A stretch of 3,410 nt of DNA from a virus (Duplodnaviria > Heunggongvirae > Uroviricota > Caudoviricetes), in the IMG/VR virus record IMGVR_UViG_2695420687_000017. One strand, written 5' to 3'. Below the pieces are notes generated by a model, which ran no database searches, had not been told where the DNA came from, and worked only from the letters and a program-made list of their open reading frames with translations. Within the stretch, counting starts at the first letter, position 1; each line of letters opens with the position of its first letter. The position numbers and the translations under genes were made by a program. Of the stretch, positions 75 to 2,442 are shown one piece after another.

Positions 75-1361
75 TTACCCTGCTTTCTTATGGGGCATAC
101 ATGGGACACTTTCAGATAGTCTTTTGTTAAGGAGTTCTATCTGTTCGTGATTGTTGTCTTTCATCCATGCTCCGTAAACATTGAATACCATTTGTGCGTT
201 TGTGTGGCCCATCTGGCTTGCGATAAAACTAGGATTAGCTCCTGCGGCAAGTGACCAGCATGCATAAGTATGCCTGGATTGGTACGATTTTCTGTGTCTC
301 AGACCTGCGCGTTTTAAGATACTTGTCCATGACTCCCTGATGGAGTCAACCTTGTAGTGAGGTCCGGACAACTGCTGCTGTTTTGTTACCTGAGGACTAA
401 AAACAAAAGTGCATTTATGCACAGCAGTTCTCCCATATTCCCTCTGCTTCACCTCTACAGAATGTTGCTTTCCAAGCATGGTCATTTCCGCCTGGCTTTT
501 AAGAGCATCAATAGCTGGTTGAACCAGATGAATTGTCCTTCCGGTGCCTGCATCGGTTTTTGGTGGAGTGAATTCGCCAAGTTTTGTATAATTTCTACGG
601 ATGGTTATAGTCCTTGCTTTAAGGTCTATATCTTCCCATGCCAGCGATACCAACTCCCCGTGACGAATACCCGTGTATACAGCGAGAATCCACAGGTTTT
701 TTGTTTGTTGATGACGGCAAGCCTCAATAAAACGAATAAATTCGTCACGGGTGAGAGGATCTGGTTTTACCTTGGACTTTTTTAAGGGAGCCAGACCGTT
801 AAATGGGTTTCCTGAGGTATAACCATTATCTGTTGCAAATTGAAACATTCCAGCTATGGTTGTCATATAGTAGTTTACCGTGACCACTGAGCGCCCTTTT
901 ATGGAAGAAGTCTTTCCATTAGAAAGCTTTTGGTAACCGGTCAACAAATCTCTCCTTACGAAAAGTAAATCCTCTTTTGTTATGGATGAAACCAGTTTTT
1001 TTTCACCTAACATTGGTAACATGTTTTTAATTACTGACTGGTAACGGTTAAGTGCATTCGCACAAATCTCAATTTTCTTAAGGTCCAACCATTTTTCCGA
1101 AAGTGCCTTAACGGTTATCTCTCTTTTTCCCAGACCAAAGTGTTTCAGGTTAGGGGAATTAGGGAACTGCGCGGCGTAGTCGAAACTCCCCATTCTGATT
1201 GCAAAACAAACGGAAGTGCGAAGTTCACCAGCGATCTTCCGGTTTTTGGCTGTGTCAGGAACACCGAGGTTTTCTCTGACACGTTTGCCATTATAGTGAA
1301 ACCATATACGGAGTGATCCTCCATGGTTTTCAACGCCTGTCGGGTATGATGCGTTACTCAT
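75..1361 (-). CDS. int: Phage-type tyrosine recombinase (lambdoid prophage integrase, Rac/IntR-like family), 428 aa, apparently intact
   Basis: Complete ORF, ATG at 1361-1359 preceded by GGGAGG 4 nt upstream, stop TAA at 77-75. N-terminal arm-binding-type region (PTGVE, LRIWF, GKRVRE) and C-terminal catalytic motifs typical of tyrosine recombinases: GIRHGEL (Arg), RTIHL, QSRHTYACWSLAAGANPSFIASQMGH (box II) and VYGAWM (Tyr nucleophile). Lies 33 nt downstream of an excisionase-like gene on the same strand. AT-rich relative to the lacZ part. Confidence 0.93.
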   Translation of the reverse strand: MSNASYPTGVENHGGSLRIWFHYNGKRVRENLGVPDTAKNRKIAGELRTSVCFAIRMGSFDYAAQFPNSPNLKHFGLGKREITVKALSEKWLDLKKIEICANALNRYQSVIKNMLPMLGEKKLVSSITKEDLLFVRRDLLTGYQKLSNGKTSSIKGRSVVTVNYYMTTIAGMFQFATDNGYTSGNPFNGLAPLKKSKVKPDPLTRDEFIRFIEACRHQQTKNLWILAVYTGIRHGELVSLAWEDIDLKARTITIRRNYTKLGEFTPPKTDAGTGRTIHLVQPAIDALKSQAEMTMLGKQHSVEVKQREYGRTAVHKCTFVFSPQVTKQQQLSGPHYKVDSIRESWTSILKRAGLRHRKSYQSRHTYACWSLAAGANPSFIASQMGHTNAQMVFNVYGAWMKDNNHEQIELLNKRLSESVPCMPHKKAG

Positions 1362-1394
1362 TAAACCTCCCAGACGTCCAGGAGCATTAACAGG

Positions 1395-1649
1395 TTAACC
1401 GGAACTTGCATTTTTGGCACCTGGTTGTTTCTGGTTTTCGATCCATCGCATAATTTCTTCGATGTTGTACAGGCATTCACTGTAATGCCCAGGATCACCT
1501 TCTACAGCGTAATGGCGGTATTCTTTTCCCTGCATCCATGACTTTCTTCTGGCCCGCTCGATGGTGCCGGGCTTTAGCCCTGTTGATGCAATAAGGACTC
1601 TCTCCGTACACCATTTGCTGGGGGTTATCTGATAGATGATTGTCTGCAT
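1395..1649 (-). CDS. xis: Excisionase-like protein (Xis / recombination directionality factor), 84 aa
   Basis: Small basic ORF immediately upstream of and co-directional with int, the canonical xis position. Sequence ITPSKWCTERVLIASTGLKPGTIERARRKSWMQGKEYRHY resembles the winged-helix excisionase pattern of lambda Xis and the putative-excisionase families, judged from memory. GAGGT 5-6 nt upstream of ATG at 1649-1647. Confidence 0.7.
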   Translation of the reverse strand: MQTIIYQITPSKWCTERVLIASTGLKPGTIERARRKSWMQGKEYRHYAVEGDPGHYSECLYNIEEIMRWIENQKQPGAKNASSG

Positions 1650-1667
1650 GCCAACCTCATAAAACTT

Positions 1668-1802
1668 TCATCCACGGCAGTGGCACCACACGTCAAACAT
1701 TCGTTTCACAACTTCACGGCAGTAGAAGCCGTCGACATCACGGGTCAGGTCGTAGCGATTGCCGAATGTCTTGCGAACCCAGAACTCAAAAGCCGTATGC
1801 AT
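1668..1802 (-). CDS. Small ORF not in the supplied track, 44 aa (MHTAFEFWVRKTFGNRYDLTRDVDGFYCREVVKRMFDVWCHCRG), hypothetical, three Cys near the C-terminus
   Basis: Found by hand translation. ATG at 1802-1800 is preceded by a perfect Shine-Dalgarno GGAGGTGA (1813-1806) with a 6-nt spacer; the SD overlaps the TGA stop of the upstream 80-aa ORF. Stop TGA at 1670-1668, 18 nt before the xis start. Fills the only gap in an otherwise tightly packed co-directional gene string. No homolog recognised. Confidence 0.35.
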   Translation of the reverse strand: MHTAFEFWVRKTFGNRYDLTRDVDGFYCREVVKRMFDVWCHCRG

Positions 1803-1805
1803 GTA

Positions 1806-1813
1806 TCACCTCC
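1806..1813 (-). promoter_or_regulatory. Shine-Dalgarno GGAGGTGA serving the 44-aa ORF
   Basis: Plus strand reads tcacctcc at 1806-1813; the minus strand is GGAGGTGA, 6 nt upstream of ATG at 1802. Same 8-mer as at 2141-2148. Confidence 0.4.
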
Positions 1814-2048
1814 GTTGCATTGCGCGTAATTTTTTCAGGCGCATTTCCTGCTCAGTGCCCGCCAGAATTTTGCGGTACTCCTGTTGGTCAATATGTTCGA
1901 ACAGGTTGTTGAACTCACCAATGCGTACCCGTCCGGAGCGCCCGTCCATGCGTCGAAAGAACACTGAGTGCTGAGTACTGCGAGTAATCACCACAGGGTA
2001 TCCGGCTCTGTCCGTGTATATCTGACCACGTTGAATCAGAGCGAACAT
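1806..2048 (-). CDS. Hypothetical prophage early-region protein, 80 aa
   Basis: ORF co-directional with xis and int. ATG at 2048-2046 with GGGGA and AGGA upstream. Basic C-terminus (RLKKLRAMQRR). Function not recognised; a weak resemblance to small lambdoid-prophage proteins of unknown function is recollection only. Confidence 0.55.
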   Translation of the reverse strand: MFALIQRGQIYTDRAGYPVVITRSTQHSVFFRRMDGRSGRVRIGEFNNLFEHIDQQEYRKILAGTEQEMRLKKLRAMQRR

Positions 2049-2052
2049 TCCT

Positions 2053-2139
2053 TTATCCCCAGCGGAAAAGCGAATACAGAATAAATGCCACCGCTATTGC
2101 AACTCCAACTGCGGTGAATGCTTCAGGCCAATTCATCAT
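2053..2139 (-). CDS. Small hydrophobic ORF not in the supplied track, 28 aa from the first ATG (27 aa from the second): [28 protein letters not shown]; predicted single-pass membrane peptide
   Basis: Found by hand translation. First ATG (2139-2137) overlaps the TGA stop of the chimeric ORF in an ATGA arrangement typical of translational coupling. Second ATG (2136-2134) lies 7 nt downstream of a perfect GGAGG (2148-2144, part of GGAGGTGA at 2148-2141). About 20 consecutive hydrophobic residues followed by RWG. Stop TAA at 2055-2053, 4 nt before the next gene's ATG. Confidence 0.35.
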
Positions 2140-2442
2140 TTCACCTCCTGCGGCGGTTCTGGTAGCTGCATCCAGTGGGTTACCTCTTTGAGATACAGGT
2201 CTTCGCCATCACCGTCATCCCAAGTGGGCTTGCCATCATTAAACCAGTCGCCATATACGCCGACCTGAGTGTTGGGGATGTTTGGTGGGTAGTTGTTTTT
2301 AAAGTCAGCTGCTAACACATAGCATTGTCGCTCTCCCATTTCAGGCATTCGCTCACTACAGCTTATCCAACCATCCGGAGTTGCCGGATAGTTGCCATTC
2401 ACAAGGTCAGCTCGAACATATAGCGTGTCATCATGGTGTTCT
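2136..2442 (-). other. Phage-derived DUF551-like domain segment forming the 3' ~100 codons of the chimeric ORF
   Basis: Motifs [20 protein letters not shown] and [11 protein letters not shown] match my recollection of the conserved start and end of the DUF551 domain found in lambdoid early-region proteins. The native N-terminus and start codon of this phage gene are not present. Family assignment is from memory, not a search. Confidence 0.5.

Follow-up and report, generated by a model that had tools for sequence, protein, structure and literature searches.

The attL-proximal end of an Sp15-type prophage in E. albertii mlrA, very probably joined to lacZ by a chimeric draft assembly

The window, that is the whole stretch of 3,410 nucleotides that was analysed, carries in positions 17-2440 the attL-proximal end of a lambdoid prophage in mlrA, of the Sp15/VT1-Sakai, BP-4795 and YYZ-2008 type, and in positions 2441-3410 a fragment of lacZ that is foreign to the prophage. 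The combination is very probably the end of an Sp15-type prophage in the mlrA gene of E. albertii to which lacZ was attached by a false joint in a chimeric assembly. A preliminary description of this DNA had taken the abrupt end of the phage genes for the border of a defective prophage; the lacZ junction is almost certainly a mis-join in a chimeric draft, with no defective remnant behind it. The 2.4-kb int-xis block is a known integration module. The features of the window are listed below.

1..16, minus strand: host mlrA (yehV), E. albertii type, left of the att core (contig continuation and identity)
17..37: attL core CCACGCGCGTAACGTGACAGG, 21 bp (matches annotated phage att site/direct repeat)
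75..1361, minus strand: int, tyrosine integrase, 428 aa, intact (Pfam, PHROG, identity to VT1-Sakai)
1395..1649, minus strand: xis, DUF1233/XisR-type excisionase, 84 aa, intact (Pfam, PHROG, PDB, identity to YYZ-2008)
1668..1802, minus strand: conserved phage ORF, 44 aa (PHROG 3871, E=1e-32)
1806..2048, minus strand: DUF4222 gene, 80 aa (Pfam PF13973, 9e-16; PHROG 285)
2053..2139, minus strand: putative hydrophobic ORF, 28 aa (translation; start overlaps the DUF551 stop as ATGA)
2136..2440, minus strand: 3' 305 nt of a DUF551 gene, codons 97-196 and stop (Pfam PF04448, 6e-20)
2440..2441: phage/lacZ joint, judged an assembly artefact (no microhomology; in frame)
2441..3410, minus strand: internal fragment of E. 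albertii lacZ, approximately residues 353-675 (Pfam Glyco_hydro_2_C, LacZ_4)

The integration module and its site in mlrA

All phage genes of the window, namely int, xis, the 44-aa ORF, the DUF4222 gene, the putative 28-aa ORF and the DUF551 fragment, lie on the minus strand. This bears out the co-directional, dense packing noted earlier, and the spacing that had been given as 0-33 nt with overlapping signals was measured as 33, 18, 3 and 4 nt, with a single overlap of stop and start, ATGA, at 2136-2139. The likeness to the early-left (pL) end of phage lambda also stands: cIII, kil, gam, bet/RecT and exo lie upstream of this int-xis module in a related prophage of E. coli. As in lambda, the early-left genes, xis and int are co-directional and tightly packed toward att. 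In contrast to lambda, the proteins belong to other families, with an Arm-DNA-bind_2 domain in Int and a DUF1233/XisR-type Xis, and att lies inside mlrA instead of between gal and bio. Early-left regions of lambdoid phages are mosaic. Within the module, 0 promoter-like sites were found versus 3.9 expected, and no terminator-like site was found in the intergenic spaces of its minus strand; the promoter, N and nut sites fall outside the window. By analogy with lambda, transcription of the module would start at an early-left promoter farther upstream and run toward att.

The integrase contains Arm-DNA-bind_2 (2e-24) and Phage_integrase (5e-18) domains and is assigned to PHROG 1 (integrase). All 428 of its 428 residues are the same as in Int of Sp15/VT1-Sakai, of which it is an orthologue. 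An alignment to Tn1549 Int locates TGIRHGEL, SRHT, GH and the final Y, and places Tyr360 at the first His of HxxR. Structures of lambda Int were absent among the PDB matches at E<=0.001. The excisionase (Pfam PF06806, 2e-29; PHROG 539, excisionase) is identical to Xis of YYZ-2008 at 84 of 84 positions and matches PDB entry 2kvv, described as a 'putative excisionase'. A small, predicted winged-helix-like protein encoded 33 nt upstream of int, it is of the DUF1233/XisR type. Both proteins are full length and identical to their phage homologues, in agreement with the earlier impression that they are intact. Sp15 has been shown to excise and circularise in vivo (PMC2669165), and because Int is identical to the functional Sp15 Int, the enzyme would be expected to be active. 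Int alone would integrate attP into attB within mlrA, and Int together with Xis would excise the prophage by recombination between attL and attR.

The 44-aa ORF carries a CDS annotation in E. coli lysogens and in YYZ-2008. The putative 28-aa ORF has no PHROG match, and PGAP annotates no gene for it in the identical E. coli region. In E. coli O145:H28 RM12761, the DUF551 protein has 196 aa, and its residues 97-196 are the same as those encoded by the DUF551 part of the window.

The position of the module in mlrA is given by the att core at 17-37, which went unnoticed in the preliminary description. The core is annotated in YYZ-2008 as a 'direct repeat due to prophage insertion' (positions 238-258 of that record) and in VT1-Sakai as the 'attachment site', and the genome record of BP-4795 begins at window position 17. 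Its place, immediately downstream of int and within the 5' part of mlrA, is that of the mlrA-integrating prophages of the Sp15/VT1-Sakai/BP-4795 type. Leftward on the contig, mlrA (residues 29-243) is followed by yohO and yehW; the DNA left of the core is host sequence, in line with the earlier view that more phage on that side was unlikely. This host part matches E. coli at 89.2% and two E. albertii contigs (L101 and L102) at 100%. The phage part and the core are 100% identical to E. coli; the first mismatch, 16 nt to the left of the core, is at window position 1, and farther leftward identity to E. coli falls to 89%.

The lacZ joint and the source assembly

The lacZ fragment is 89% identical to E. 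coli lacZ; an E. albertii-type lacZ (L085) matches it at 98.8%, and the members of the protein cluster that match it are named E. albertii beta-galactosidase (residue numbers follow the mature E. coli protein, anchored on E461). Neither E. coli nor E. albertii appeared among the related loci listed for the LacZ fragment, and the species was assigned from the cluster names and the literature. Phage similarity ends at 2440 and lacZ similarity begins at 2441, 1079 nt upstream of the start of int. The end of phage DNA at lacZ, described as about 1.1 kb from int, is evident as a switch in the sequence; as a feature of the genome it is unconfirmed, being a joint within a demonstrably chimeric contig. 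The joint fuses the phage ORF in frame to lacZ, which chance would give in 1 of 3 cases, and it has no ambiguous bases, unlike most other joints examined in the assembly.

The source is the E. albertii draft genome GCA_000936005.1, in which pieces of 0.2-4 kb from distant loci are strung together. The contig that holds the window, CDRK01000089.1, reads lacZ', then phage with mlrA-yohO-yehW, then 'dpaL-ygeY-hyuA', then gss'-yghU-hybGFED, and every joint cuts genes mid-way. The other two joints are marked by clusters of N, and the bases called there are superpositions of the true continuations. One of these, the far end of the same 4-kb phage and host piece, is a demonstrably false joint.

A second contig of the same assembly, CDRK01000135.1, holds lacZ sequence that matches window 2441-2671 at 100%. 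Here, lacZ runs uninterrupted over the breakpoint (...NVGPQGKQLIELPELPQ...) and into prpE. This 231-bp lacZ stretch is thus present twice in the assembly, and the duplicate stops exactly at an N-marked joint of CDRK01000135.1. The contig is itself a patchwork: 13.3 kb of it scatter over a median of 13 separate places in each E. coli genome, the largest block that stays collinear sits exactly between two N clusters, and the contig also has one synteny break without any N. The missing N at 2440/2441 had been considered as a sign of a real junction and was dropped on account of this N-less break. The pieces of the contigs of GCA_000936005.1 are individually accurate and wrongly concatenated, and the assembly is unfit for calls of synteny, pseudogenes or prophage boundaries. 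Two particular origins of the joint were rejected: ligation at a restriction site, as in a 3C-type library, since the parental sequences have no common site at the joint, and a k-mer-mediated de Bruijn chimera, since they have no common sequence there.

Uninterrupted relatives indicate what the joint has very probably displaced. E. albertii GCA_021397505.1 (JAEHKG010000003.1) and the ENA assembly ERZ27278948 are 99.975% identical to the window's strain over the 4025-bp phage and host piece. The alignment of contigs L101 and L102 to this piece breaks off exactly at both of its ends. Past the DUF551 end, these contigs carry the DUF551 gene in full (196 aa) and, beyond it, more early genes; past the host end, yehW is followed by yehX-yehY-osmF. 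The two E. albertii contigs that carry the phage-mlrA junction are 77 kb and 490 kb long and come from independent assemblies (NCBI and ENA). The prophage in GCA_021397505.1 and ERZ27278948 thus has the same piece without the lacZ joint and with a complete DUF551 gene, and this uninterrupted arrangement is the natural one. In three E. albertii assemblies, the native lacZ locus reads tauABCD-frmRAB-yaiL-lacZ-prpEDCB, without phage. No lacZ was found beside this module in the viral contigs, phage records, and E. coli and E. albertii genomes searched. In the present strain, position 2440 would in truth border on the remainder of the DUF551 gene, with further early genes behind it, as the near-identical E. 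albertii genomes suggest, and the lacZ fragment would border on the remaining lacZ and then prpE.

The joint itself could not be found elsewhere. A 40-mer across it had no exact match in the GTDB representative genomes or IMG/VR, and a 30-mer had none in the JGI metagenomes. When the 424-aa fusion fragment was compared with known proteins, none of the best 120 matches listed spanned both halves.

The defective remnant rests solely on the lacZ switch at 2440/2441, a switch that lacks credibility: lacZ is continuous in CDRK01000135.1, the phage is continuous in near-identical E. albertii lysogens, and the phage end away from att occurs as a junction in one chimeric assembly only. One abrupt junction in a draft contig made a defective prophage, an in-frame LacZ fusion and a stranded int/xis pair look plausible, which calls for caution; this picture falls apart when the assembly is compared with its own contigs and with sister genomes.

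Other explanations of the joint

A real junction would require illegitimate recombination, for example an inversion with one end in lacZ and the other in the mlrA prophage, that left a remnant and a LacZ(1-675)::DUF551(97-196) fusion. On a chromosome map like that of E. coli, lacZ and the prophage genes would be on opposite strands, so that an inversion could give a co-directional lacZ fusion. The clean base-to-base switch without N, the preserved reading frame and the truncation of E. albertii lacZ in some other genomes are consistent with such an event. It is nevertheless very unlikely, as the same assembly has lacZ intact over the breakpoint, near-identical E. albertii lysogens are uninterrupted, and the junction was seen nowhere else among GTDB representatives, IMG/VR, JGI metagenomes and listed protein matches. 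In addition, the other end of the 4-kb piece is false, and false joints without N do occur in this assembly. An inversion should also leave the reciprocal product. A synthetic hybrid query, DUF551(1-95) followed by R and the LacZ C-terminus, was built to test the inversion model; in a search of 5.8 billion protein clusters, none of the best 120 matches listed spanned both halves, and this in-frame DUF551(1-95)::LacZ product is thus missing from the listed matches. A variant in which the lacZ'::'DUF551 joint is real in at least part of the culture, with the orphan lacZ of E. albertii (residues 1-675) fused in frame to the DUF551 domain of the Sp15-type prophage and an intact lacZ in other cells or in a second copy, is very unlikely. 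If the joint were real, attL, int and xis would be stranded by illegitimate recombination as a non-excisable remnant.

The joint might also belong to a phage that captured a lacZ fragment as a moron-like insert among its early-left genes; the prophage would then go on beyond the fragment, and the chromosomal lacZ would be intact. The mosaicism of such regions would permit this, and the occurrence of the 231-bp stretch twice in the assembly is what a duplication would give. The duplicate, however, ends exactly at an N-marked joint, as overlapping assembly pieces would, and the insertion would have destroyed a conserved phage gene. As the viral contigs, phage records, and E. coli and E. albertii genomes searched all lack lacZ beside the module, capture is most improbable. 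A mixture of the sample with a Shiga-toxin E. coli lysogen, in which the phage-mlrA junction is itself chimeric via the common att core, would account for a phage part 100% identical to E. coli next to a host part only 89% identical, in an assembly that is chimeric in any case. The probability of such a mixture is very small, since two independent E. albertii assemblies share the phage-mlrA junction with a 100% identical host flank. An Sp15-type prophage end in E. albertii mlrA with a false lacZ joint is the reading retained.

Relatives of the prophage in E. coli

Sp15/VT1-Sakai, the Stx1 prophage of E. coli O157:H7 Sakai, and its relatives YYZ-2008 and CP-933V are integrated in yehV (mlrA). 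Sp15/VT1-Sakai has the same att core, gene order and Int, and its DNA is 99.6% identical over the aligned part; the host differs, being E. coli there and E. albertii here. The match to Sakai and YYZ-2008 comprises two pieces that cover 66% of the window and end at 2397, which indicates that the sequence past the integration module differs. BP-4795 is a complete Stx1 phage of 57.9 kb from E. coli O84:H4, in which int, xis and three small ORFs are annotated; it is 96.4% identical over 17-2440, a divergence of approximately 3.6%. Over window 2-2440, the other E. coli lysogens listed, together with BP-4795, YYZ-2008 and VT1-Sakai, show 96-99.9% identity.

Among the E. coli lysogens listed, the closest match is the prophage that RM12761 and RM13516, two strains of serotype O145:H28, carry in mlrA, with 100% nucleotide identity over window 2-2440 and the same annotated genes (integrase, xisR excisionase, hypothetical protein, DUF4222 and DUF551). 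It differs from the window in its complete DUF551 gene (591 bp), followed by early genes of the Ea22-like, YfdR, YfdQ and YfdP types, and in a host flank that is 11% divergent. That an E. albertii mlrA prophage end is base for base the same as that of Shiga-toxin E. coli O145:H28 is unsurprising. Exchange of lambdoid phages between E. albertii and E. coli is known, and the identity of the prophages fits with it. In E. coli, insertion into mlrA has a known effect on the regulation of curli and biofilm.

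Genes of the phage block

Every ORF of note in the window lies on the minus strand.

75–1361, minus: int, 428 aa; Pfam Arm-DNA-bind_2 and Phage_integrase; PHROG 1
1395–1649, minus: xis, 84 aa; Pfam DUF1233; PHROG 539; matches PDB 2kvv, "putative excisionase"
1668–1802, minus: 44-aa ORF; PHROG 3871
1806–2048, minus: DUF4222 gene
2053–2139, minus: 28-aa hydrophobic ORF, its ATG overlapping the DUF551 stop codon as ATGA
stop at 2136, running off the window at 3410, minus: long lacZ-DUF551 ORF; first 323 codons beta-galactosidase (Glyco_hydro_2_C, LacZ_4), final 100 codons DUF551 domain

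The 28-aa ORF has no PHROG match and no PGAP call in identical E. coli DNA. The preliminary description is right to call the block packed and co-directional, the intergenic gaps being 33, 18, 3 and 4 nt with one ATGA overlap. A related prophage of E. coli carries cIII, kil, gam, RecT/bet and exo ahead of the same DUF551-DUF4222-orf44-xis-int module, which makes "lambda early-left architecture" an apt term. A scan of 1–2600 for sigma-70-like promoters returned 0 matches (3.9 ± 2.2 in shuffled sequences), and minus-strand terminator-like sites were found only inside int. Both results would fit read-through transcription that starts at an upstream promoter, without proving it.

The lacZ junction at 2440/2441

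Phage identity stops at 2440 and lacZ identity begins at 2441, with no microhomology at 2440/2441. The junction is in frame, LacZ passing from ...GPQ through a hybrid Glu codon to DUF551 residues 97–196. The phage DNA had been described as ending here, as a defective remnant; this did not hold, six lines of evidence indicating a false joint in the assembly, which we consider very likely. The gene layout and the early-left int/xis module are real; the truncation does not belong to the genome, and a remnant is not supported.

Two independent E. albertii assemblies, L101 (ENA) and L102 (GCA_021397505.1), were compared with the 4025-bp piece of phage and host DNA. Both match it at 99.975% identity, with 100% in the host flank, and the alignments break off precisely where the piece begins and ends. 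Beyond it, the phage side of both contigs runs on into a DUF551 gene of the full 196 aa and additional early genes, the host side into yehX-yehY-osmF. Three E. albertii assemblies show lacZ at its native locus as tauABCD-frmRAB-yaiL-lacZ-prpEDCB-prpR, without phage DNA.

Composition of the source contigs

The window is the end of CDRK01000089.1 (L002), an 11.3-kb contig of the draft genome GCA_000936005.1. This contig is a mosaic of lacZ', then phage plus mlrA-yohO-yehW, then 'dpaL-ygeY-hyuA', then gss'-yghU-hybGFED, and each joint cuts a gene. N clusters mark the other two joints (L002 4998–5019 and 7563–7570), and the called bases within both are the two true continuations superposed; in the first, 11 of 12 called bases follow true E. 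albertii yehX. In a second contig of this assembly, CDRK01000135.1 (L088), a stretch of 13.3 kb combines aga, gatZ-like, livGMH, lacZ-prpE, zapA, rpsF-priB-rpsR, ligA and glpX. The contig has 12 N clusters spread over 1312–10889, two of which exactly bound its largest collinear block. The median number of places to which the 13.3 kb maps in an E. coli genome is 13. Both contigs are concatenated 0.2–4 kb pieces from distant loci. Since CDRK01000135.1 also has a synteny break without N (ligA-ypeB to glpX, near L088 12334), the absence of N at 2440/2441 is no sign of authenticity. Many joints in the two contigs are N clusters with two sequences superposed. The whole of GCA_000936005.1 seems a poor basis for judging gene order, pseudogenes or the limits of mobile elements.

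That some of the culture had a genuine lacZ'::'DUF551 molecule is improbable, and duplication of a lacZ fragment is rated lower still. As further evidence of a false joint, neither GTDB representative genomes nor IMG/VR nor JGI metagenomes contain the junction sequence. In a search of 5.8 billion protein clusters, none of the best 120 matches listed spans the fusion, and none of those listed covers the reciprocal in-frame hybrid expected from an inversion. Also for a false joint, CDRK01000135.1 encodes a LacZ C-terminal fragment (P0226). This lacZ piece, with N at both sides, is 100% identical to window 2441–2671 and runs on as normal lacZ past the window's breakpoint into prpE. A false joint is the preferred reading.

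Host, integration in mlrA and relatives

The chromosomal parts of CDRK01000089.1 are 89%–93.5% identical to E. coli. The lacZ part of the window shares 89% identity with E. coli lacZ and 98.8% with a lacZ abutting prpE, without lacY or lacA; the 90% cluster holding the prpE-adjoining LacZ protein bears the name Escherichia albertii. Ooka et al. (2015, PMC4700944) report that lacA, lacY and lacI are missing from every E. albertii, lacZ being kept. The host is E. albertii.

The E. albertii orphan lacZ (L089–L091) is flanked by yaiL (DUF2058) and prpE. The genes around lacZ in E. coli K-12, namely lacI, the mhp operon, lacYA, and the cyn and cod genes, are thus all missing at the E. albertii locus. 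A 5,007,500-bp E. albertii record encodes a 382-aa LacZ C-terminal fragment (P0219, WP_265464164.1), in which 23 unrelated N-terminal residues (MKRESLSFRILFETLSRFSCAAS) precede LacZ sequence, the join lying ∼12 codons upstream of the 2440/2441 breakpoint. Because unrelated residues join LacZ there, lacZ seems genuinely interrupted in that genome, perhaps by an insertion. Several further E. albertii LacZ entries are truncated too.

Window 17–37 is the att site, or direct repeat, as annotated in related phage records, and the DNA left of the att core is mlrA (yehV). The phage part and att core are 100% identical to E. coli. The first difference falls at window 1, 16 nt to the left of the core, and the host flank beyond is 89% identical. 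Such a step is what one would expect if a phage acquired recently had integrated by genuine site-specific recombination. The mlrA prophages of E. coli O145:H28 RM12761 and RM13516 are 100% identical to window 2–2440, and other E. coli genomes listed are 99.7%–99.9% identical; phages BP-4795, YYZ-2008, VT1-Sakai and phi330 share 96%–99.7% with the phage part. Phage DNA 17–2440 is 100% identical to RM12761, the flanking chromosome (1–16; L002 3397–4997) only 89%, which suggests that E. albertii and E. coli exchanged the phage very recently.

Xis matches that of YYZ-2008 at 84 of 84 residues. In a phmmer alignment to Tn1549 Int, Tyr (YQSRH) occupies the first-His position of the conserved HxxR box at Int residue ∼360. 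The family probably tolerates this variant, because Int is identical (428/428 residues) to the functional Int of Sp15 (VT1-Sakai). Sp15 lies in yehV and undergoes excision and circularization in O157 Sakai (PMC2669165). Nothing in this prophage end departs from Sp15-type prophages. By analogy with its family, Int would bind arm and core sites and insert attP into a 21-bp attB inside mlrA, replacing the first 28 mlrA codons; Xis, from the same leftward transcript, would steer Int to excision between attL (17–37) and an attR outside the window. RefSeq "MlrA" in E. coli lysogens (L001 5352–6053, compared with window 1–54) is a 233-aa protein with its start codon inside the prophage end (window 54) and a hybrid N terminus. 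The mlrA call on the E. albertii contig is 215 aa, corresponding to MlrA residues 29–243.
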